This document shows positions 6,486 through 45,848 of a stretch of DNA of 64,000 nt, one piece after another (position 1 is the first letter of the stretch; each line of letters begins with the position of its first letter). The notes under the pieces are model-generated. The model was not told where the DNA came from. It saw only the letters and a list, made by a program, of their open reading frames with translations, and did no database searches. Where the stretch lies: assembly GCF_046105845.1 (NCBI RefSeq), contig NZ_CP151004.1; one strand, written 5' to 3'. The position numbers and the translations under genes were made by a program. Source of the DNA: Escherichia coli. Lineage in GTDB: Bacteria > Pseudomonadota > Gammaproteobacteria > Enterobacterales > Enterobacteriaceae.

Positions 6486-6718
6486 GCTGCACCTCCGAGA
6501 TGCTTCATGTTTTTTCCGGAGCAAAAGGCTATAAGCGGCATACTGATGCGGTAATTACGGCCCAGCGGTTCACAAATCACCTTCTGACATTCACGGTCAA
6601 CCAGGCTAACACGTAGAACATGCCCTGCAGGCGTGGTGTACCACTGCCCAACTGTAGGAATTGATGTTTTTTTACGCTGAAGCAAACGGCAAATATTGAG
6701 GATCAACGGATTAAGCAT
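6482..6718 (-). CDS. Hypothetical phage protein (78 aa), translationally coupled
   Basis: The ORF overlaps both neighbours: 8 nt with the upstream gene, and ATGA with the O-like start. I recognise no motif. Confidence 0.45.
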   Translation of the reverse strand: MLNPLILNICRLLQRKKTSIPTVGQWYTTPAGHVLRVSLVDRECQKVICEPLGRNYRISMPLIAFCSGKNMKHLGGAA

Positions 6719-7547
6719 GACGATGCCCTCCGCTGATATTCAGGAGACGGTGAATATGAAAATTAGCCTTATCCGCCAGACGAATACGTTCAGCCTGCAA
6801 GTTAAGAAGGGTTTCTACCAAAACCTGATGCGCCTGCGGATCCGAAAGAGTTACCTTGCGCAGAGCACGTAGTGCAGTTGTTACATAACTGAGTTTATGT
6901 AAGTCTTCATCATTCAGACGAGTGAGGGCTGGGACAGTAGCCATGATGGCAGCCTCCGATAACAGTGAATTACCTTCACCACCGGAAACGCCAATTTCGC
7001 TGGTGGTGAACTGAACGGGGTTGGCGTAACCGGCGTTATCGGAAACCGGCGCACCTTTCGGTGCCCCCGTCCAGCCCACCATAATTTGGGTGTGCACAGA
7101 CACAGACGATAAAAAAGACGCTGGCGCGTCATATATCGCCGATAACATTTCCAGGACGCCAATCCCGTCACCCGCTTTATAAGGTGCCTGAACAGTGTAA
7201 CGTCCCGGAATGGCAGAATCAATGTGCTGGTGGTCCTTCACACTCAACAAAATCACGCCTGAATTTCCACAAAGGACTAAAGCACTCATGCGGGTAGTCT
7301 TTGCGAAGATAGATAACGCGCTGTGTTTCTGGTTCCCAACGAATAACATGGACATAAAGCCCTCTTCCGTCACGAAACCAGCGGTTAAGTTCCCGCACAA
7401 CTCGCCCCCCACAGTCAGGTAAAGTTCTCTGTGGTTACTTACAGCCAGGTGATTTGGTAATCTGCATTCATGCCGTAACAACAGGTGTTCAGCGACACTG
7501 ACCACCAGCTGTTGCGACAAACGGTTATTTGCCGTTAAACTGTTCAT
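6711..7547 (-). CDS. Hypothetical phage protein (278 aa)
   Basis: ATGA overlap with the cII-like gene stop. I recognise no family. Confidence 0.6.
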   Translation of the reverse strand: MNSLTANNRLSQQLVVSVAEHLLLRHECRLPNHLAVSNHRELYLTVGGELCGNLTAGFVTEEGFMSMLFVGNQKHSALSIFAKTTRMSALVLCGNSGVILLSVKDHQHIDSAIPGRYTVQAPYKAGDGIGVLEMLSAIYDAPASFLSSVSVHTQIMVGWTGAPKGAPVSDNAGYANPVQFTTSEIGVSGGEGNSLLSEAAIMATVPALTRLNDEDLHKLSYVTTALRALRKVTLSDPQAHQVLVETLLNLQAERIRLADKANFHIHRLLNISGGHRHA

Positions 7548-8107
7548 GCGTTAGTTTCTCCACAGACACAAAACGCCACGACGCCCGGAGCTGCACACTC
7601 GCGGGCGTCACTCTTTTCTGGAGCGCAAAAGATTTTGTAGACCAGTGCTGCATGCTCTTGGAGCTTCGAAATTGACAGATACAACTCATCATTAATTGCT
7701 GTCTGCTCGTGTGGCTCCACGACCCCATCTTCGATTGCCGAACGAATCTGCTTTGAGTAATTCCCGATCTGTTCGATGACTTCCAGCAGGCGCTGGTTTA
7801 TATCGGCGTTCTCTACTTCCTCAATTTCAGGAAGCGATACGAACACCCCACCAGCAGACTGTGCGACAGCATCCGCAATGTAGTGAGTGTCAGCCGCGCG
7901 CTGTAAAACCATTGCCCATCCCAGCGGGAAAATCTGATCGCCATCGGCACGAAGGCGGTTAAATAATGCGTTCTCTGTTACATCCAGCCAGTCAGCTGCT
8001 TCAGCGTAACCACCCGGCAACGCTGCGATAGTTTTTCTGACAGCTTTCACGTACCACTCAGGCTGTTTTTCTACTTTCCAGTGATACTTACCCACGGTTA
8101 GCCTCAT
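7544..8107 (-). CDS. CII-type (phage 186 CP76-like) regulatory protein
   Basis: 187 aa, directly downstream of cro. ...LPGGYAEAADWLDVTENALFNRLRADGDQIFPLGWAMVLQRA... resembles the CP76/CII family (memory). Confidence 0.55.
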   Translation of the reverse strand: MRLTVGKYHWKVEKQPEWYVKAVRKTIAALPGGYAEAADWLDVTENALFNRLRADGDQIFPLGWAMVLQRAADTHYIADAVAQSAGGVFVSLPEIEEVENADINQRLLEVIEQIGNYSKQIRSAIEDGVVEPHEQTAINDELYLSISKLQEHAALVYKIFCAPEKSDARECAAPGVVAFCVCGETNA

Positions 8108-8138
8108 CGTTCTGTGGTTAAAAATTGAAGGTGTTCTG

Positions 8139-8339
8139 TTAATCTTTCGGATAGATATCCGGTCTTAAGTCAGATTTCGTAATTGCACCTGACGTGCATT
8201 GCTCAAGTTTTTTCGCCAGCACAAAACTGGCTTTTTTATAACCATTGAAAACCAGCCGTAAGTAGCCAGGTGTTGAGCCAACTTTTCCGGCCAACTCGCC
8301 CTGCTGTTCTTTGGTTAAAGAGTCCCAATACGCTTTCAT
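8139..8339 (-). CDS. Cro-like / YdaS-family small HTH repressor (66 aa)
   Basis: ATG 8339 with a GGAGG SD. MKAYWDSLTKEQQGELAGKVGSTPGYLRLVFNGYKKASFVLAKKLEQ... It is divergent from cI. The ORF-track N-terminal extension runs through the operator region. Confidence 0.7.
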   Translation of the reverse strand: MKAYWDSLTKEQQGELAGKVGSTPGYLRLVFNGYKKASFVLAKKLEQCTSGAITKSDLRPDIYPKD

Positions 8340-8344
8340 ACAAT

Positions 8345-8423
8345 ATGTACCTCCAGTATACATATTACATGATTGAAATGAACCTTCAAGATACTTGTAC
8401 CTTATCGGTACAAAGGTTTTAAT
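8345..8423. promoter_or_regulatory. OR-type switch: operators plus divergent PR / PRM promoters
   Basis: Operators are ATGTACC-N7-TACAT (8345-8363) and TTGTACC-ttatc-GGTACAA (8395-8413). PR on the minus strand is TTGAAG (8384-8389), 16 nt, TAATAT (8362-8367). PRM on the plus strand is TTGTAC (8395-8400), 17 nt, TTTAAT (8418-8423). Confidence 0.55.
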
Positions 8424-8429
8424 TTCGTT

Positions 8430-9104
8430 ATGAAAACAATCCATGACATCCGGCGGTCTAACGCCAGAAAACTGAGAGATGGTGTTGGCGGAAATTCATC
8501 CTTTGCCACCATGATTGATCGCGAGCCAACCCAAACCAGCAGGTTTATGGGGGATGGCGCTACTAAAAATATCGGTGACAGCATGGCACGGCACATCGAA
8601 AAATGTTTCGACCTGCCTGTCGGATGGCTTGATCAAGAACACCAGACAACGAACATCACAAAAAAACCTGATGTTTCAATCACTAACAAACAAATAACGT
8701 TAGTCCCTGTCATATCATGGGTACAGGCCGGAGCATGGAAAGAAGTTGGCTATTCTGAGGTTGATTTGAGCACAGCAGAAACGTATCCCTGCCCTGTACC
8801 CTGTGGCGAAATGACTTATATCTTGCGGGTGATTGGTGATTCAATGATTGATGAGTACCGCCCTGGAGACATGATTTTTGTTGATCCCGAAGTCCCTGCC
8901 TGCCACGGTGACGACGTTATTGCATTGATGCACGATACAGGCGAAACCACCTTCAAGCGATTGATAGAAGATGGAACACAGCGTTATCTCAAAGCATTAA
9001 ACCCAAACTGGCCTGAGCCTTACATTAAGATTAACGGTAATTGCTCTATAATTGGTACAGTGATTTTCTCGGGAAAACCAAGAAGATACACAATAAAGGC
9101 CTAA
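8430..9104 (+). CDS. CI-type prophage repressor (HTH + S24 LexA-like autopeptidase)
   Basis: 224 aa. The C-terminal segment ...LRVIGDSMIDEYRPGDMIFVDPE...TTFKRL... carries the S24 Ser/Lys dyad context. It is divergent from cro. Confidence 0.85.
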   Translation: MKTIHDIRRSNARKLRDGVGGNSSFATMIDREPTQTSRFMGDGATKNIGDSMARHIEKCFDLPVGWLDQEHQTTNITKKPDVSITNKQITLVPVISWVQAGAWKEVGYSEVDLSTAETYPCPVPCGEMTYILRVIGDSMIDEYRPGDMIFVDPEVPACHGDDVIALMHDTGETTFKRLIEDGTQRYLKALNPNWPEPYIKINGNCSIIGTVIFSGKPRRYTIKA

Positions 9105-9116
9105 TCAATATTTATG

Positions 9117-9139
9117 AACCTGCTTCGGCAGGTTTTTTT
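9117..9139 (+). terminator. Intrinsic terminator after cI
   Basis: AACCTGC-ttcg-GCAGGTT followed by a T7 run. Confidence 0.8.
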
Positions 9140-9143
9140 ATAC

Positions 9144-9171
9144 TTGACAATGTACCTATGAGATACATAAT
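9144..9171 (+). promoter_or_regulatory. PL-equivalent promoter with embedded operator
   Basis: TTGACA (9144-9149), 16 nt, CATAAT (9166-9171). The spacer contains ATGTACC-N7-TACAT (9150-9168), the same operator form as at OR. Confidence 0.6.
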
Positions 9172-9589
9172 GTATCCAAAAGAAACATGAGGCAGGCAAG
9201 ATTCAAACAAAATTTGGTTGTAACACGGCGTATGGCACATGCGTCGTTAGCGGTCTGGGGACGTTAAAGGGGACAATCCACTCCTTGCTAGGGCAAACAA
9301 ACCAGGTAGCCGGAATGTGCAAGTCAATGATGATGCTGATAAGACGCCTAACCAGCGTGGCGATCCGGTTTGACGCCTGGGAAGAGACCAGGGTGCAACG
9401 ATGAGGGCATTTATGGAGCCGCGACAAAGTGTGGTGCCGTAACTGGCTAAGTGCTCTCAGCGTTGTGGTCATCCGCGAAATGGCGCGGCGGTAAGTATGG
9501 CTGGGTTACTCTTTCCCCGTTGAGGACACCGGATTGTCAGGTTGACCATACGCCTGAGTGACAACCCCACCACAACAGCCACTGCTTTG

Positions 9590-9635
9590 GCGGTACCAGT
9601 TTGTACACTTGCTTCCGGCTGGTACCGCTCTTTTT
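9590..9635 (+). terminator. Intrinsic-terminator-like hairpin inside the long PL leader
   Basis: A 10-bp stem GCGGTACCAG / CTGGTACCGC with a 19-nt loop, followed by TCTTTTT. Confidence 0.55.
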
Positions 9636-9772
9636 ACAAAACAGAGAAGAGCATCACCGGACGACGGGCTCATAACCCAATCCATCCGGGCGGCTGCCAC
9701 CGCAGGTGTTCTTCTCTGTTTTGTGGAGAAACCAACCGACCTTGCAGGGTCGATATGATGAGGAGCAGCAAA

Positions 9773-10135
9773 ATGGCTAGCGAACGCAGTACTGATGTGC
9801 AGGCATTTATCGGGGAGCTGGACGGCGGCGTATTTGAAACCAAAATCGGCGCAGTTCTCAGTGAAGTCGCTTCCGGTGTGATGAACACGAAAACCAAAGG
9901 TAAGGTCTCACTCAACCTGGAAATCGAACCATTTGATGAGAACCGTGTGAAAATCAAACACAAACTCTCATATGTTCGCCCGACTAACCGCGGGAAAATT
10001 TCCGAAGAAGACACCACCGAAACGCCGATGTATGTCAATCGCGGTGGTCGCCTGACTATTCTGCAGGAAGACCAGGGACAATTACTGACTCTTGCCGGTG
10101 AACCTGACGGAAAACTACGCGCAGCAGGTCATTAA
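9773..10135 (+). CDS. YfdP-like phage protein (120 aa)
   Basis: ATG 9773 lies 8 nt after GAGGAG. MASERSTDVQAFIGELDGGVFETKIG... The longer ORF-track form (from 9542) runs through the structured leader. Confidence 0.65.
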   Translation: MASERSTDVQAFIGELDGGVFETKIGAVLSEVASGVMNTKTKGKVSLNLEIEPFDENRVKIKHKLSYVRPTNRGKISEEDTTETPMYVNRGGRLTILQEDQGQLLTLAGEPDGKLRAAGH

Positions 10136-10200
10136 TATCGTTCTTAATTAACTGATTATTTATCTCATCACTGAATATCTTTATATAGTGAGGACTTATT

Positions 10201-11025
10201 ATGTCTCAGAACTTAGACGCAACCGCAATTAATCAAATCCATGCCCTTATTTCTGCTCAGGGTGTTAATGAAATTATCAGTAAGATTGGTGCCGATGCTG
10301 TGGTATTGCCTGAGAATTTCCGCATTCATGATCTGGAAAAATTTAATTTAAATCGCTTCCGTTTCCGTGGTGCGCTTTCCACTGCCAGCATCGATGACTT
10401 TACCCGTTATTCTAAAGATCTTGCAGATGAAGGCACCCGCTGCTTTATCGATGCTGATAATATGCGTGCCGTCAGTGTACTTAACCTGGGTACTATTGAT
10501 GAACCAGGTCACGCAGATAACACCGCCACTCTCAAACTGAAAAAGACAGCACCGTTCTCTGCCCTGTTGTCTGTTAACGGCGAGCGTAACTCCCAGAAGT
10601 CACTGGCAGAATGGATTGAAGACTGGGCCGACTACCTTGTGGGCTTTGATGCTAATGGTGACGCTATTCAGGCAACAAAAGCGGCTGCGGCAGTCCGTAA
10701 AATCACGATTGAAGCAAACCAGACCGCTGATTTTGAAGATAATGACTTCAGCGGCAAACGCTCCCTGATGGAATCTGTCGAAGCGAAGACCAAAGACATT
10801 ATGCCAGTGGCATTTGAAATTAAATGCGTTCCGTTTGAAGGTCTGAAAGAACGTCCGTTTAAATTACGCCTCAGCATTATCACTGGCGATCGTCCTGTAC
10901 TGGTTCTGCGCATTATTCAGCTGGAAGCGGTGCAGGAAGATATGGCTAACGAATTTCGTGATCTGCTTGTTGAGAAATTCAAAGACAGCAAAGTAGAAAC
11001 CTTTATTGGTACTTTCACCGCCTGA
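10201..11025 (+). CDS. yfdQ: YfdQ-like (DUF2303) phage protein
   Basis: 274 aa, [21 protein letters not shown]... It has the same length and order as CPS-53 yfdQ (memory). The SD is GAGGA. Confidence 0.6.
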
Positions 11026-11152
11026 TTTCATTACTGCAAATGCCCCTGCGGGGGCATTTATGGAAACGTAATTAACTCAATAATCACCGGATGGTGAGGG
11101 CTTCCTTTTACCCAAACTCAGCGCGGTGCAGCGCATATACGTGGAGAACAAA

Positions 11153-11689
11153 ATGTCATTTATTAAAACTTTTTCCGGGAAGCATTTTTATTATGACAAG
11201 ATAAATAAAGACGACATCGTGATTAACGATATCGCGGTTTCCCTTTCAAATATCTGCCGCTTTGCCGGTCATCTTTCTCACTTCTACAGTGTCGCCCAAC
11301 ATGCGGTGCTTTGCAGCCAGCTGGTGCCGCAGGAATTTGCTTTTGAAGCGTTAATGCATGATGCAACAGAAGCGTATTGCCAGGATATTCCCGCTCCACT
11401 GAAACGCCTTCTTCCTGACTATAAACGGATGGAAGAAAAAATTGACGCCGTAATCCGTGAGAAATACGGGTTACCCCCAGTTATGAGTACGCCCGTGAAA
11501 TATGCCGATCTTATCATGCTGGCAACCGAACGCCGCGATCTCGGGCTTGATGATGGCTCTTTCTGGCCTGTACTGGAAGGCATCCCGGCAACAGAGATGT
11601 TCAACGTGATTCCACTGGCACCTAGCCATGCCTACGGGATGTTTATGGAACGTTTTAACGAGTTATCGGAGTTACGCAAATGCGCATGA
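11153..11689 (+). CDS. yfdR: HD-domain 5-prime-deoxynucleotidase YfdR
   Basis: 178 aa from ATG 11153, MSFIKTFSGKHFYYDKINKDD... HD-type residues are present (SVAQHAV...LMHDATEAY). It matches K-12 YfdR from memory. Confidence 0.7.
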   Translation: MSFIKTFSGKHFYYDKINKDDIVINDIAVSLSNICRFAGHLSHFYSVAQHAVLCSQLVPQEFAFEALMHDATEAYCQDIPAPLKRLLPDYKRMEEKIDAVIREKYGLPPVMSTPVKYADLIMLATERRDLGLDDGSFWPVLEGIPATEMFNVIPLAPSHAYGMFMERFNELSELRKCA

Positions 11690-12042
11690 ATGTTTTCGAA
11701 ATGGAAGGGTTTCTTCGCGGTAAATGTGTACCGCGAGATCTGAAAGTGAACGAAACAAATGCTGAGTACCTGGTACGTAAATTCGACGCGCTTGAAGCTA
11801 AATGTGCGGCACTGGAAAACAAAATAATACCAGTGTCAGCTGAACTGCCACCAGCAAATGAAAGTGTTCTGTTATTTGATGCTAACGGAGAAGGCTGGCT
11901 GATTGGCTGGCGTTCTCTCTGGTACACCTGGGGACAAAAAGAAACCGGAGAATGGCAGTGGACATTTCAGGTCGGGGACCTTGAAAACTTCAATATCACT
12001 CACTGGGCAGTAATGCCAAAAGCGCCGGAGGCTGGAGCATAA
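11680..12042 (+). CDS. yfdS: YfdS-like DUF551 protein
   Basis: 120 aa. The C-terminus ...GWLIGWRSLWYTWGQ...ITHWAVMPKAPE is DUF551-like. It overlaps the yfdR stop. Confidence 0.55.
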   Translation: MRMNVFEMEGFLRGKCVPRDLKVNETNAEYLVRKFDALEAKCAALENKIIPVSAELPPANESVLLFDANGEGWLIGWRSLWYTWGQKETGEWQWTFQVGDLENFNITHWAVMPKAPEAGA

Positions 12043-12662
12043 TGACCACATTTACCAATAAAGAACTGATTAAAGAAATCAAAGAACGAATCAGCAGCCT
12101 AGAGGTTCGAGACGATATTGAGCGCCGTGCTTATGAAATTGCTCTGGCATCGCTAGAAGAGGAGCCGGTGGCATGGCTGCATTCAGAAAATGGCTTAGGT
12201 ATTCCGGCAATAACGAGGAGTAAAAACATTGCTGACAGTTGGTTATCAAAGGGCTGGTATGTTCAGCCGCTATATATAGCCAAGCCAGTGCCGGTGGTGC
12301 CAGATGCTCGTCCGTCTTTAAATAATGGCATAGTCGGCTTTGATGAAGGCTGGAACGCCTGCCGCGCCGCCATGCTTAATGGTGCCGAACCTGTAAGCCA
12401 GACTTACAAGTTGAACGAGCTGTCGGGCAACTCTCCGGTAACTCCGGATGGTTGGATAAGCTGTAGTGAGCGAATGCCGAACGATAAACAGTATGTTTGG
12501 TGTTGGGGTAAGTCTTACGGCTGGACTGAGTACGATACCTTCGAAGGGTATTACGATTGTTCGAGAAACAAATGGTGGGCAGTTACTGACAATGGGGAAG
12601 AACCGGCATCGAAAGTAACCCACTGGATGCCGCTACCGGAGCCGCCGCAGGAGGTGAAGTAA
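12042..12662 (+). CDS. DUF551 domain phage protein (206 aa)
   Basis: The C-terminus ...DGWISCSERMPNDKQYVWCWGKS...VTHWMPLPEPP is the DUF551 pattern. ATGA-type coupling to both neighbours. Confidence 0.6.
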   Translation: MTTFTNKELIKEIKERISSLEVRDDIERRAYEIALASLEEEPVAWLHSENGLGIPAITRSKNIADSWLSKGWYVQPLYIAKPVPVVPDARPSLNNGIVGFDEGWNACRAAMLNGAEPVSQTYKLNELSGNSPVTPDGWISCSERMPNDKQYVWCWGKSYGWTEYDTFEGYYDCSRNKWWAVTDNGEEPASKVTHWMPLPEPPQEVK

Positions 12663-12856
12663 TGAACAACTTAATGACAACTAAACAAGTCGCCGATTTC
12701 TGTGGTGTTTCAGTATCGACAGTTCTTCGCTGGAACAGCGTAAACAGGAGAACTGGCCAGAAATACAGGCCTGACTTTCCAGATCCTGATATTAAATCCT
12801 GCCCAAATAAATGGGCATCACACAAGATTTACAGATTTGCGGGAGTGATTGATTAA
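12662..12856 (+). CDS. Excisionase-type small HTH protein
   Basis: 64 aa. MTTKQVADFCGVSVSTVLRWNS is an HTH_17/excisionase-like helix-turn-helix. It is the last gene of the early-left operon, near int. Confidence 0.55.
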   Translation: MNNLMTTKQVADFCGVSVSTVLRWNSVNRRTGQKYRPDFPDPDIKSCPNKWASHKIYRFAGVID

Positions 12857-13138
12857 TATGTATTAGCTTAGATGTGAGCTGACACATCTATGATTAGATG
12901 CCAAACCAAATCTGAGCGTCCACTCTTTAACAAGAGCGGACGTTACCAATGACCATATGACATGAATCGATAAGATCAAAACATTATCGCCAAGAAATGT
13001 CATACCATTGATACAAATAAAATTGATTACCCCCTTACTCTTGTTGAAAAGTTAGTCGTAGAGTACCTATCGCAATGTAATCAGCTTTAATCATCTGAAA
13101 ATTACTCCTTAAAAATTAGCTTTTATATACTGAACAAA

Positions 13139-13858
13139 TTAAATCTCTGTTTCTTTTCCTGTTCGGCTCAACCAATACTCCATTGTTTGAGTATGAATCT
13201 TTTCAGCGTATATTTTATCAATTAATTTATCTCGTTTTTCTTTAATGACTTTACGCAGTGAATCATATAACATAAAAAAACGTTCATCATCTTCCTCATT
13301 ATTACCATAATTTATTTGATTGAGTTCTGAAAAAATATGATAGCACCTTTTTTTCTTGGTCCCCGGCAATATTAAAACCAAGCCACATTGATCATATTCA
13401 AATTCACCTTTATGGGCAGCAAAGTTATGTCTAACATTCATAATAGAATCATGTAAATCTCTGTATTTTTCTGGCACATGCTTTCTCTGCAATGTGAATC
13501 GACGCCCTTTCGCCTCTGTAAAACACTTACCGTAAGTAACAACTTTTGATATAAATAAAGACTTTAATATTAGATTCTTTTCTAAATCAGGATAAATAAA
13601 GTGTTGTTCTCTATTAATGTTATTACAAATGTTTTTTATTATATTCTCCCAACCAATAACATTCCGAAGATCTTTATCCAGCAACTGTAAGGCCACATAT
13701 TGTTCTACAAAGCGGCCTTTTAAAGGTATTCGTGGTAATATTACACCTTTCTGCTTATAAACTCTTTCTATCGTATTATCTGGATATTGGATCTTCCTTA
13801 TTTCTATTCCGTCTTCTTCTGATACCCTTACTAATGGTTCATTTTTTAACTTTGACAT
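13139..13858 (-). CDS. AT-rich accessory gene (239 aa) with HEPN-like R-x4-A-H motif
   Basis: AAGAGGG SD. It is visibly more AT-rich than the rest of the prophage. The NVRHNFAAHKG motif is at aa 141-151 (core R143-H149, nt 13412-13432). It sits between xis and int. Confidence 0.75.
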   Translation of the reverse strand: MSKLKNEPLVRVSEEDGIEIRKIQYPDNTIERVYKQKGVILPRIPLKGRFVEQYVALQLLDKDLRNVIGWENIIKNICNNINREQHFIYPDLEKNLILKSLFISKVVTYGKCFTEAKGRRFTLQRKHVPEKYRDLHDSIMNVRHNFAAHKGEFEYDQCGLVLILPGTKKKRCYHIFSELNQINYGNNEEDDERFFMLYDSLRKVIKEKRDKLIDKIYAEKIHTQTMEYWLSRTGKETEI

Positions 13859-14143
13859 GTTAACCCTCTTAAATAAAAAACTAACTTTATCCAGATAGTG
13901 TCCGTTAAGAAGTTTTCGTTACAACTAAGTTTCTAGGTAAATCATGAATCAACCTATAGTATCAAAAACATTTGGTGGTAAACATCTGCATTTATCAAAT
14001 AGCAGGAGCGATTTAGGGGCATAGGGATAGTGATGATATCTATACCCGTGCCCTCTTATGTCAACACAATGGCGTAAACTTAACGCTCACATCTCGCTCA
14101 AAGTGTGCTAGGAGATTTGGTTATGTTCAGGTGATACAAACCG

Positions 14144-15367
14144 TCAGTTTGAATCAGAGATAGTACAATTAACAATCGATTCAACCCTCTTCCACCATGC
14201 CAGGTAAGCTTTACGCTGTTCTTCTAGATAATCGCTCTTATCATAAACTTGCCATACCCCTGGCAGCTTATGACCAAGCATAATTTCTGCGATATGAGGC
14301 GCAGTAAGATCAGAAAAATTTGTTCGTGCTGTCCGTCTCAAGTCATGAAGAGACCAATGAGGGAATTGATATCCTAAACGCCGCCACGCGTACTGCATTA
14401 AATTGTAAGGCAGCGACTGTAATGATGTCCTACCGACTGGCTCCCTGCTTCCTTCCTTAGTAAAAAGCATATCGGAACCGTTGTTCATAGAGATAACGTA
14501 TTTTATAAGCTCTTCAACCGGTTCAATAATGGGCCGCTTTAGCGGTTCGCCTGTTATGTCCCCTGTCTTATGTCGTTCAGGTGGTACAGTCCATACCTTA
14601 TTTATGAAATCAAAATCACCCACCCTAGCAGTAATTAGCTCCGAACTACGGCAACCAAAATGCAGTAATAGTTTAATGAAGGCCCGGTATTTGGGAACCA
14701 TTCTAGAGCCATCGATCGCAGCATAAAGAATTTTAATTTCATCGTGTGTCAGAAACCGTTTCTTCTGACCTTTACGGATATCCATATCTTTACCCGTGAT
14801 ATCCGACAGCGGGCGAGTTTCAATAAGCTTTCTCTTATACGCCCAGACATGGGCCTGCTTTGCGTTAATTAGCAATCGGTCTGCTATTGCTGGAGTCTTA
14901 GTGCTAAGAGGCTCCAGGACTTCTAACCAATCATGCAATGTAGCTGCATCGTGAGGGATATTCCCGATTTTAGAGAACAGGTGCAGCTCAAACGAGCGGA
15001 GTATCTGTTCAGAACCCTTTTTATTTTTTACACAATATGCTTCATACCAGGCACGGATCACAGACTCTACCGTCATGGCTTCAGTAGCTTTTCGTTTTTC
15101 AGCCTGCTTGACCAATCGTGGATTACGGTTTGACTCGAGTTCACCACGGAGACGGATAACTTCTTCTCTGGCCTCTTTTAATCCAGTTGCCGGGTAAGTT
15201 CCGATATCAAGACGCTCACCTTTCCCTGCCCATTGATAACGATATTGAAACACTACGCGACCTTTCGGTGATACTCTGACAGACAGACCATCACGATCGG
15301 ATTTAACCAAAACCTTATCACGTTCCTTTCCAACGACTGAACGCAACCACGCATCAGACAGCGCCAT
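14144..15367 (-). CDS. int: Tyrosine integrase (P4/CP4-57 type, DUF4102 N-terminal arm-binding domain)
   Basis: 407 aa. N-terminus ...DGLSVRVSPKGRVVFQYRYQWAGKGERLDIGTYP. C-terminal catalytic context ...HFGCRSSEL...WSLHDLRRTARTNF...LGHKLPGVWQVYD (R..HxxR..Y). Confidence 0.9.
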   Translation of the reverse strand: MALSDAWLRSVVGKERDKVLVKSDRDGLSVRVSPKGRVVFQYRYQWAGKGERLDIGTYPATGLKEAREEVIRLRGELESNRNPRLVKQAEKRKATEAMTVESVIRAWYEAYCVKNKKGSEQILRSFELHLFSKIGNIPHDAATLHDWLEVLEPLSTKTPAIADRLLINAKQAHVWAYKRKLIETRPLSDITGKDMDIRKGQKKRFLTHDEIKILYAAIDGSRMVPKYRAFIKLLLHFGCRSSELITARVGDFDFINKVWTVPPERHKTGDITGEPLKRPIIEPVEELIKYVISMNNGSDMLFTKEGSREPVGRTSLQSLPYNLMQYAWRRLGYQFPHWSLHDLRRTARTNFSDLTAPHIAEIMLGHKLPGVWQVYDKSDYLEEQRKAYLAWWKRVESIVNCTISDSN

Positions 15368-15596
15368 TACTCACCTTGTACAAATCGCAAAACACCTCTG
15401 CTGCTTTGTACATTATGTACAAGCATATGTACAGATTTTTGATGAAAGCAACCTGATCGATTTAAAGTTACATGAAAGAATTTTCAATTAAAGAAGCCAC
15501 ATAACTATATGTATTTAAATGAGTTATATAACCAGACCTCAATTAACTGAAAGGATTTTGAAAGAGTAAAAGAGCTTTAATTTGGGATTAATTATT

Positions 15597-18606: not shown

Positions 18607-18693
18607 GCGAAGGTGGCGGAATTGGTAGACGCGCTAGCTTCAGGTGTTAGTGTCCTTACGGACGTGGGGGTTCAAGTCCCCCCCCTCGCACCA
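18607..18693 (+). tRNA. leuV: tRNA-Leu (CAG), copy 1
   Basis: 87 nt, GCGAAGGTGGCGGAATTGGTAGAC...TTCAAGTCCCCCCCTCGCACCA. The anticodon loop TTCAGGT gives CAG. It has a long variable arm and an encoded CCA. Confidence 0.95.
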
Positions 18694-18721
18694 AAAACCA
18701 CGTTGATATTGCTCGCACTGG

Positions 18722-18808
18722 GCGAAGGTGGCGGAATTGGTAGACGCGCTAGCTTCAGGTGTTAGTGTTCTTACGGACGTGGGGGTTCAAGTCCCCCCCC
18801 TCGCACCA
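18722..18808 (+). tRNA. leuP: tRNA-Leu (CAG), copy 2 (one variable-arm C to T difference at 18769)
   Basis: The same 87-nt sequence except GTGTTC instead of GTGTCC in the extra arm, which turns a C-G pair into a U-G pair. Confidence 0.95.
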
Positions 18809-18842
18809 AACGAGGCGATATCAAAAAAAGTAAGATGACTGT

Positions 18843-18929
18843 GCGAAGGTGGCGGAATTGGTAGACGCGCTAGCTTCAGGTGTTAGTGTCCTTACGGACG
18901 TGGGGGTTCAAGTCCCCCCCCTCGCACCA
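18843..18929 (+). tRNA. leuQ: tRNA-Leu (CAG), copy 3
   Basis: Identical to copy 1. Confidence 0.95.
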
Positions 18930-45771: not shown

Positions 45772-45848
45772 AGCGCGGTGCGGATGTGCGCCAACACACC
45801 CGCACCGCTCATCACAATCACTATTCCAGGAGAATAGCAGTTATGACT
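45772..45848 (-). ncRNA. symR: SymR antisense RNA (antitoxin of symE)
   Basis: Mapped from the remembered K-12 geometry: 77 nt, starting 6 nt inside symE and running antisense over its RBS. A TAAAAT -10 lies 7 nt upstream of the predicted start (AGTCATAACTGC...). The 3-prime hairpin is GCGGTGCGG...CCGCACCGC. Confidence 0.65.

Follow-up and report, generated by a model that had tools for sequence, protein, structure and literature searches.

The 64,000-nt stretch of Escherichia coli DNA analysed here (contig NZ_CP151004.1 of assembly GCF_046105845.1, called the window below as a whole) carries a lambdoid prophage related to SfV, mEp460 and CPS-53. Our subject is the leader of its early-left operon at 9172-9772, which has 98-100% identity with the phages 2H10, cdtI and Ayreon as well as with Stx2c-converting phages, and where about 600 nt hold no credible gene between a promoter equivalent to PL and yfdP, the first gene preceded by a Shine-Dalgarno (SD) sequence. 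An operator-like ATGTACC...TACATA at 9150-9169 overlaps the promoter, and its second copy lies at 8345-8364, in the region from which cI and cro diverge. Downstream of yfdP come yfdQ, yfdR and further genes as far as xis; all these early-left genes sit behind one terminator, located in the leader, with no N-like gene at the operon head. An initial annotation of the locus had pointed out the promoter, the long leader and this arrangement, and the analysis bears it out on all three; the same situation exists in the dicBF operon. It had offered three possible explanations, i.e., a cis-acting RNA resembling the put elements of phage HK022, a host-factor mechanism acting at a boxA, or a stable small RNA (sRNA) released from PL. 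Our results support the last one, in that the hairpin and U-run of the leader are the 3' end of RNAs detected in homologous prophages. The features of the locus are as follows:

7544-8107, minus strand: CII-like gene, diverging from the repressor gene.
8139-8444, minus strand: Cro-like gene, diverging from the repressor gene.
8430-9104: cI-type S24 repressor gene (Pfam, 1.5e-26).
9116-9135, plus strand: intrinsic terminator of the cI-like repressor transcript, an 8-bp stem plus T-run, annotated as terminator in Ayreon and SfV.
9144-9171, plus strand: PL-equivalent sigma-70 promoter, TTGACA-16-CATAAT, with 11/12 consensus matches, annotated as promoter in Ayreon.
9212-9461, plus strand: module A, a conserved non-coding leader sequence common to unrelated phage contexts bearing RNA genes.
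9376-9392, plus strand: covarying hairpin CCUGG-GAAGAGA-CCAGG within module A, in which 3 of the 5 pairs change on both sides.
9459-9579, plus strand: cassette closed by a helix named P1, with a core of the Qin pre-DicF type, about 91% identical to 2501-2607 of the Qin sequence L005.
9461-9635, plus strand: predicted small RNA of about 175 nt, counterpart of the 190-nt form of DicF and of sRNA-17.
9586-9635, plus strand: DicF-type terminator hairpin and U-run, predicted 3' end of the sRNA, with stem 9590-9599/9619-9628 and a 19-nt loop.
9631-9730, plus strand: three-way junction, with a 25-bp helix (9631-9655/9705-9729) capped by hairpins 9657-9689 and 9690-9703; probable RNase III site.
9664-9683, plus strand: nearly invariant apical motif ACGGGCUCAUAACCCAAUCC of hairpin 1 of the junction, in single copy in the window and known from 161 loci.
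9737-9752, plus strand: small hairpin CGACCU-UGCA-GGGUCG upstream of the SD, with a folding free energy (dG) of -8.5 kcal/mol, alone not significant.
9760-9775, plus strand: SD GAGGAG and ATG (9773) of yfdP, the first early-left gene (phrog_204, 1.2e-49).

The leader as a whole folds better than shuffled sequence (z = -4.27). The Rfam search proposed in the initial annotation gave no match in 9172-9772 (with E <= 10 for the region and gathering thresholds for the whole window), and ARAGORN found neither tRNA nor tmRNA in the leader. BLAST against 5,426 complete E. coli genomes revealed that the leader is a mosaic, whose commonest piece is window 9462-9568 and whose last part, 9588-9772, is almost invariant within the species.

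The commonest piece leads to the prophage Qin, where it matches, at about 91% identity, the ydfC-dicF spacer, which in K-12 lies between ydfC and dicB; about 25 nt downstream of the homologous block, Qin encodes DicF (Rfam, 76.7 bits). It has been reported that DicF occurs in a 53-nt form, which depends on RNase E, and in a 190-nt form, which depends on RNase III, both ending at the terminator, and that a terminated ydfABC-dicF transcript of 1146 nt coexists with a read-through ydfABC-dicFB-ydfD transcript of 1608 nt (PMC10448788, Ragunathan et al.). Maturation by RNase III is described in the same paper and named in the title of Faubladier 1990. Counting 190 nt back from the U-run of the Qin terminator leads exactly to the 5' arm of P1, GGUUGUGGC, which is the start of the conserved block; the 190-nt form of Qin begins with GGTTGTGGC, and its equivalent in the window is 9461-9635. 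The likeness extends to the surroundings, since both loci belong to N-less lambdoid prophages and follow an early-left promoter under repressor control, and both show a homologous upstream (precursor) domain of about 115 nt (window 9461-9576, about 91% identical), which in Qin makes up the 5' part of the 190-nt species, the same hairpin foot (UUUGGCGGUAYCAG) and a long stem right after the U-run, which in Qin has 17 bp; as in the maturation of DicF, the duplex follows the 3' end of the sRNA. They differ in that the window lacks the 19 nt that carry the DicF seed, UAUCAAUUUUCUGGUGACG, and its hairpin has another loop and 3' arm; moreover, the post-terminator stem encloses a three-way junction in the window and an STnc100-like core in Qin, module A takes the place of ydfABC, and yfdP, not dicB, follows. 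Consistently, the Rfam DicF model (RF00039) had no match in window 8000-11000 even at E <= 10, the Qin control scoring 76.7 bits, and the alignment with Qin confirmed that the 5' seed UUCUGGUGAC is missing together with these 19 nt. Since the seed is missing, it is unlikely, judging from the sequence, that the window RNA would regulate the DicF targets ftsZ, xylR, pykA and manX. At least 7 distinct 3' units were found behind the pre-DicF domain, including classic DicF, variants with other seeds or hairpins and the window type.

The cassette is closed by helix P1, in which 9462-9469 (GUUGUGGU) pairs with 9569-9576 (ACCACAAC). Among 46 distinct pre-DicF-type sequences from viral contigs, retrieved by a pattern from that region that fixes some of the columns, P1 covaries by wobble and compensatory changes, the observed pair types being UG:26/UA:20, GU:30/GC:16 and CG:37/UA:7. 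A covariance model of the domain (R1) scored 142 bits at 9459-9579, with no other credible match in the window, and did not match HK022, mEp460 or SfV. As a separate observation, the GGGG segment of the pre-DicF domain (around 9503-9506, 9518-9521 and 9565-9568) shows conflicting compensatory changes in sequences L032 and L071 of alignment A2, where one backs a local hairpin with a nearby CCCC and the other a long-range pairing with the CCCC beside the 3' arm of P1; these changes may reflect alternative folds.

The second RNA to which the leader is related is sRNA-17, which is 193 nt long by rapid amplification of cDNA ends (RACE) and Northern blot and which E. coli K1 RS218 encodes ahead of yfdP, in a prophage resembling mEp460 (PMC7719688, Sun et al. 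2020). We made the comparison on mEp460 and on the primer table of the paper. Of the full-length primers, one is the reverse complement of window 9604-9635 and the other a variant of the window sequence starting at 9460. On mEp460 the pair delimits 194 nt, beginning with CGTTGTGG and ending with CTCTTTT. The way in which the RACE primers and the Northern probe are oriented shows that sRNA-17 has the sense of PL, the same as yfdP. If the RNA is taken as defined, running from CGTTGTGGTG to GGTACCGCTCTTTT over 193 nt, both ends and the 3' part of about 70 nt are present in the window (9569-9635 matching the 3' end), whereas the core is replaced; in fact, the supplementary alignment of Sun et al. 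lists the 3' part of about 70 nt found in the window as 'degenerative sRNA-17' (PMC7719688). The two loci have in common module A, a P1-closed cassette, identical terminator hairpin and long stem, and then yfdP, but the core of about 110 nt between the arms of P1 is of the Qin pre-DicF type here and of the sRNA-17 type in RS218, so that the window RNA need not share any function of sRNA-17 for which the core is required. More generally, the flanks AGCGUUGUGGU and CACCACAAC are common to the window, mEp460 and SfV, with three unrelated cores in the roughly 110 nt between them; an identical hairpin/terminator, long stem and start of yfdP are also common to all three.

The third core leads to STnc100. 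The core of SfV plus its terminator hairpin, in the same slot, matches the STnc100 model of Rfam (39.5 bits, E = 6e-6), and the Qin region after DicF is STnc100-like (34.4 bits); neither score reaches the gathering threshold of 47. The window did not match this model (RF02076) even at E <= 10, because its core is of another type. The architecture is nevertheless that of STnc100, for which the Rfam model spans a P1-closed cassette, with a helix of the GUGGUG/CACCAC type, followed by a terminator hairpin of the same type, and all these RNAs are prophage-borne; the difference is that many copies of STnc100 and of its relative PasD lie near the late (Q/lysis) region. PasD was detected in Hfq RIL-seq data (bioRxiv 10.64898/2026.05.13.724894). 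A further STnc100-like core (38 bits) was noticed at 1199-1318 of a P1-like plasmid (L004). Two loci depart from the architecture: L233 (Buttiauxella) has a cassette of the STnc100 type with neither terminator nor long stem before yfdP, and L241 (a contig named 'Martelella alba') has the terminator and no long stem. In Phytobacter ursingii, the P1-flanked slot contains a tRNA (L243 2222-2300 and L248 1186-1264; ARAGORN Ile, anticodon AAT; Rfam tRNA 52.8 bits for the L243 copy), directly upstream of the DicF-type hairpin/U-run, the three-way junction and yfdP, and therefore the slot of the sRNA cores can also hold a tRNA.

The hairpin that ends the cassette region has a GC-rich stem of 10 perfect base pairs (10-13 bp in all) directly before TCTTTTT, with dG -21.2 kcal/mol and z = -4.74, and has the form of an intrinsic terminator, as had been proposed for 9590-9635. 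Its 19-nt loop is atypically long; this was the only reason why an automated terminator scan, which accepts loops up to 8 nt, skipped the hairpin at 9590-9628. The element shares UUUGGCGGUAYCAGUUU with DicF, without the DicF seed, and is the same as the 3' end of sRNA-17; a hairpin followed by 5-8 U is retained in 17 diverse loci with differing stem sequences. The 3' ends of the homologous RNAs were mapped at the U-run (3' RACE of sRNA-17, and DicF), and by analogy the window RNA would also end there. As for the passage of RNA polymerase beyond this point, no element found here explains it; the dicBF precedent and the loop, atypical for an efficient terminator, suggest that the terminator is leaky.

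The sequence that follows is structured as well. The inverted repeat 9636-9650/9710-9724, reported initially as 15 bp, is perfect and extends to 25 nt; 9631-9730, U-run included, has a dG of -51 kcal/mol (z = -8.25), and the 5' strand of the 25-bp helix starts with the U-run of the terminator itself, paired to GGAGA. The covariation across homologues that the initial annotation had suggested to look for could not be tested within E. coli, because 33 haplotypes of the 200 nt upstream of yfdP are nearly identical, and so yfdP loci of other genera were used, one genome per species. RNAalifold on 15 diverse Enterobacterales sequences gave 32 pairs, 14 of them with compensatory changes. Pairs changed on both sides numbered 4.0 +/- 1.3 in shuffled alignments, none of 500 shuffles reaching 14, and 97.8% of the cells were paired, against 40-55% when the partners were slid by 1-3 columns. 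The conserved helices contain many G-U pairs, each of which would turn into an A-C mismatch if the opposite strand were transcribed, and this indicates that the functional RNA is that of the plus strand. In Mangrovibacter, Enterobacter, Atlantibacter, Leclercia, Superficieibacter, Phytobacter, Kosakonia, Scandinavium, Pseudocitrobacter and Providencia the layout is kept despite many sequence changes, in the order cassette, hairpin/U-run, long helix with two inner hairpins, GGAGAAACUAAC, small GC hairpin and SD; the hairpin at the position of 9737-9752 has one covarying pair. In the 161 loci where we found it, the junction precedes genes of the yfdP type and at least 4 other kinds of first gene, and follows cassettes of all types, nearly always right after hairpin and U-run. 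These two elements travel together behind pre-DicF, STnc100 and sRNA-17 cassettes or a tRNA, which fits a role at the level of the transcript, not of one gene.

With 25 consecutive pairs in a covarying helix, the junction offers RNase III the near-uninterrupted duplex of about 20 bp or more that is expected of its substrates, and processing at 9631-9729 appears to us its most likely function, by analogy with DicF. In lambda, the N leader contains an RNase III site between the early-left promoter region and the first gene. A long near-perfect duplex has the same place in the window, with no sequence similarity to that of lambda, and its cleavage is inferred only. The RNase III literature consulted (PMC6212723, PMC5371410) cites DicF only and holds no site data for the junction element.

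Module A, which occupies the first part of the leader, is not specific to PL leaders. It is about 82% identical to the sequence upstream of a tRNA-Arg(UCU) in another prophage (L002) and about 78-89% identical to the sequence after a tRNA-Ile in P1, P7 and P1-like plasmids, upstream of ban; its position before a tRNA-Arg(UCU) recurs in the structural region of other prophages, of P22-like phages and of podoviruses. In the tRNA-Arg loci, the acceptor stem begins at the position of the P1 arm in the window. Every annotated record leaves module A unannotated or calls it merely hypothetical. RNAalifold on 11 representatives gave 44 pairs, of which 6 covary, chiefly in the hairpin 9376-9392, whose stem reads CCUCG/CGAGG in loci of the tRNA-Arg type and GCCGG/CCGGC in those of the P1 type. 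In phage P1 (AF234173, 70691-70875) and in the P1-like plasmid L004 (2501-2700), where the homologue directly follows the tRNA-Ile, we also observed, upstream of ban/dnaB, that module A is continued by AUCCUGAUUUUCUGGUGAUGAC, which resembles the DicF seed UUUUCUGGUGACG; the DicF model of Rfam gave no match there.

Taken together, these comparisons make it probable, in our opinion, that the leader is a chain of conserved RNA modules, typical of the early-left operon heads of N-less lambdoid prophages (dicBF of Qin being the one that has been studied), in which an sRNA of the DicF / sRNA-17 / STnc100 type ends at a terminator and a conserved long stem then serves as processing site. What carries this reading is the homology of the modules, the conservation of P1, terminator and junction, and the RNA ends mapped in homologues. 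In this phage, transcription from the repressor-controlled PL-like promoter would run through module A (9212-9461) and then cross the structured cassette (9462-9576), and a fraction of the polymerases would terminate at the DicF-type hairpin/U-run (9586-9635). Like its counterparts in Qin and RS218, the terminated RNA would be trimmed at the base of the 5' arm of P1 (about 9461), yielding the sRNA 9461-9635, of about 175 nt. Polymerases that read through 9635 would transcribe, from the U-run onward, the 25-bp helix and its two-hairpin cap, and RNase III would then cut the helix, separating the sRNA from the yfdP-yfdQ-yfdR...xis message and giving the latter a defined 5' end. On these grounds, the apparent paradox of a terminator placed before all early-left genes in the absence of N disappears, this being the known arrangement of dicBF and sRNA-17, where the early-left transcript of a prophage has a small RNA excised from it. 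Three separately named RNAs, i.e., DicF in its long form, sRNA-17 and STnc100, become linked, and in the literature searched we found no description of them as one modular family. The junction and module A (the latter also present in P1, P7 and P22-like phages beside tRNA genes) are conserved, unannotated structures that appear to be undescribed so far, and are candidates for Rfam curation. Prophages of this type include Stx2c-converting and cdt-converting phages, and the putative sRNA, together with its processing, could affect host physiology and induction.

Some of the evidence weighs against this reading. The RNA 9461-9635 is predicted from homologues, and so is its existence in this prophage; it lacks the DicF seed and fails both the DicF and STnc100 models of Rfam, and its overall predicted stability does not exceed that of shuffled sequence (z = -0.33). 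Inside the cassette the fold is poorly resolved: most columns are invariant, in part owing to the retrieval pattern, and support is limited to P1 and one variable hairpin. For the junction, it is other genera that supply the covariation, and the alignments that yielded the structures also served to test them. The case for RNase III cleavage of the helix 9631-9729 consists of its geometry and of the analogy with dicF-dicB. Finally, an RS218 deletion mutant shows up-regulation of yfdP (Sun et al., PMC7719688), which may be due to read-through from the retained chloramphenicol-resistance (CmR) cassette and is no evidence for the efficiency of the terminator.

Several other explanations of the leader were considered. 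It is possible, with a clearly smaller probability, that module A, cassette and terminator together constitute an autonomous 'RNA moron' driven by a promoter inside 9212-9461, such as the ArcA-regulated one proposed for sRNA-17, in which case the sRNA would be made in lysogens independently of PL and the terminator would only happen to lie in the path of the PL transcript. Promoter, gene and terminator are the classic layout of a moron, sRNA-17 was seen in uninduced lysogens and rises in stationary phase, and Sun et al. treat module A as its promoter on the basis of a BPROM prediction plus an electrophoretic mobility shift assay (EMSA) in which ArcA-P shifts the fragment (PMC7719688). In addition, the tRNA-Arg behind module A in L002 is opposite to its upstream neighbours, the next downstream gene being on the same strand, and the unit therefore needs a promoter on the side of module A. 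If module A has such a promoter, the sRNA need not derive from PL. On the other hand, the published promoter evidence amounts to that prediction and an EMSA at 20-80 uM protein (PMC7719688), no sigma-70-like site with at least 9/12 matches occurs on the plus strand of 9172-9772, module A included, and the covarying hairpins of module A point to a role as RNA; in Qin, primer extension revealed no internal promoter, DicF being made from dicBp (PMC10448788). The moron and the chain of modules transcribed from PL are not mutually exclusive. It is improbable that the leader acts through proteins. Small-protein genes were suggested by open reading frames (ORFs) of 39-89 codons on both strands, two of which match PHROG families, and by the hypothetical proteins annotated here in records of related phages. 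These matches, however, concern families of unknown function only and fall on overlapping ORFs of opposite strands, and we judged them annotation artefacts; Pfam gave zero matches among the leader ORFs, and ORF boundaries vary among Ayreon, mEp460, SfV and the window. Homologues show 1-nt indels, entire cores are exchanged between conserved RNA helices, and the variation is dominated by compensatory base-pair changes, so that a protein-coding role seems to us very improbable. The 26-codon Arg-rich ORF at 9187-9267 does exist and lacks an SD, as first described, but homologous leaders preserve neither its start nor its frame nor its stop; as a candidate N-like peptide it was rejected for this lack of conservation.

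We then come to the ways in which the leader could modify transcription or translation in cis. The resemblance of the site 9626-9639 (CGCUCUUUUUACAA) to a host Nus-factor boxA, which would load NusB/NusE and make the polymerase resistant to termination, consists of GCUCUUU, common to the rrn and lambda boxA. It did not survive closer inspection, and we regard this mechanism as highly improbable: the window contains CGCTCTTT 4 times, where 2.65 copies would be expected by chance; the rrn boxA, with up to 3 mismatches allowed, does not match at this site; the similarity to the consensus (UGCUCUUUAACAA or CGCUCUUA) is at chance level, and no boxB-like hairpin follows. The site is the 3' arm of the terminator plus the U-run, and its flank is not conserved in Qin or in other genera, where other species read CGCAAUUUUUU, CGCACUUUUUU or GCCCUUUUU. 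The put-like RNA is not supported either. HK022, like this prophage, is an N-less lambdoid phage with a structured RNA near PL, but put is an element of about 70 nt, with two adjacent stems right after the promoter, which is found in both the PL and PR operons upstream of the terminators that it suppresses (PMC9378689), and the leader matches it in none of these respects. Nothing of this kind occurs directly after the promoter (9172-9250), and there is no second copy of cassette or junction motif in the window, hence none in the PR operon; the structured element to which the initial annotation had drawn attention comes after the terminator. The sequence comparison was uninformative, since by BLAST putL and putR share only 7-9-mers with the leader and the putL-vs-putR control was equally weak, and we reject the put-like reading on its architecture and copy number. 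A related proposal, to which we give little credence, is that the three-way junction is a cis RNA outside the put family and put-like in its action, which modifies RNA polymerase or blocks Rho operon-wide and so replaces N. This would account for its position at the head of the early-left operon in phages without an N gene there, for its independence of the identity of the first gene, and for two hairpins on a platform with a near-invariant apical motif between covarying stems, as for a binding surface; moreover, the 600-nt untranslated leader would otherwise be exposed to Rho. The junction, however, lies downstream of the only strong intrinsic terminator, so that it cannot explain how that one is passed, and there is little need for it further on, no strong intrinsic terminators being predicted on the plus strand in 9700-15500. 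It has no second copy, unlike putL and putR, and its closing 25-bp duplex differs from the two adjacent stems of put (PMC9378689) and is typical of an RNase III substrate. We also consider unlikely that the long stem controls translation or stability specifically for the first early-left gene, whether as a thermosensor, as a riboswitch or as the target of an autoregulatory gene product: the stem is in the 5' untranslated region, about 45 nt before the start codon, and hairpin 1 has conserved unpaired nucleotides, but SD and start codon are outside the helix, the junction precedes at least 5 unrelated first genes, and it is physically fused to the U-run of the upstream terminator.

Compared with the chain of modules with an RNase III site, a bolder extension can be formulated, which we consider speculative and unlikely. 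According to it, hairpin/U-run plus the covarying 25-bp junction with its invariant ACGGGCUCAUAACCCAAUCC would be an undescribed class of cis-acting RNA that heads N-less lambdoid early-left operons across Enterobacterales and does more than offer an RNase III site, setting the ratio of sRNA to read-through mRNA or making the polymerase resist Rho or terminators, so that an RNA would stand in for N; in the P1-flanked slot, a docking site of general use, phages would exchange tRNAs and structured sRNA cores.

Other RNA elements were observed in the window, outside the leader. The C4 antisense RNA (Rfam, 82.8 bits) and isrK (55.4 bits), at 6999-7086 and 7111-7187, lie inside a 278-aa ORF on the minus strand (6711-7547), exactly under its Pfam Phage_ASH match (aa 117-210, corresponding to nt 6918-7199); either these RNAs are embedded in a coding sequence or the Phage_ASH family was derived from a region that encodes RNA. 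At 18607-18929 on the plus strand there are three tRNA-Leu(CAG) genes in tandem, all with the same score, while the minus strand carries a cspA thermoregulator (156.5 bits) at 677-1116 and a SymR antitoxin RNA (93.5 bits) at 45772-45848.

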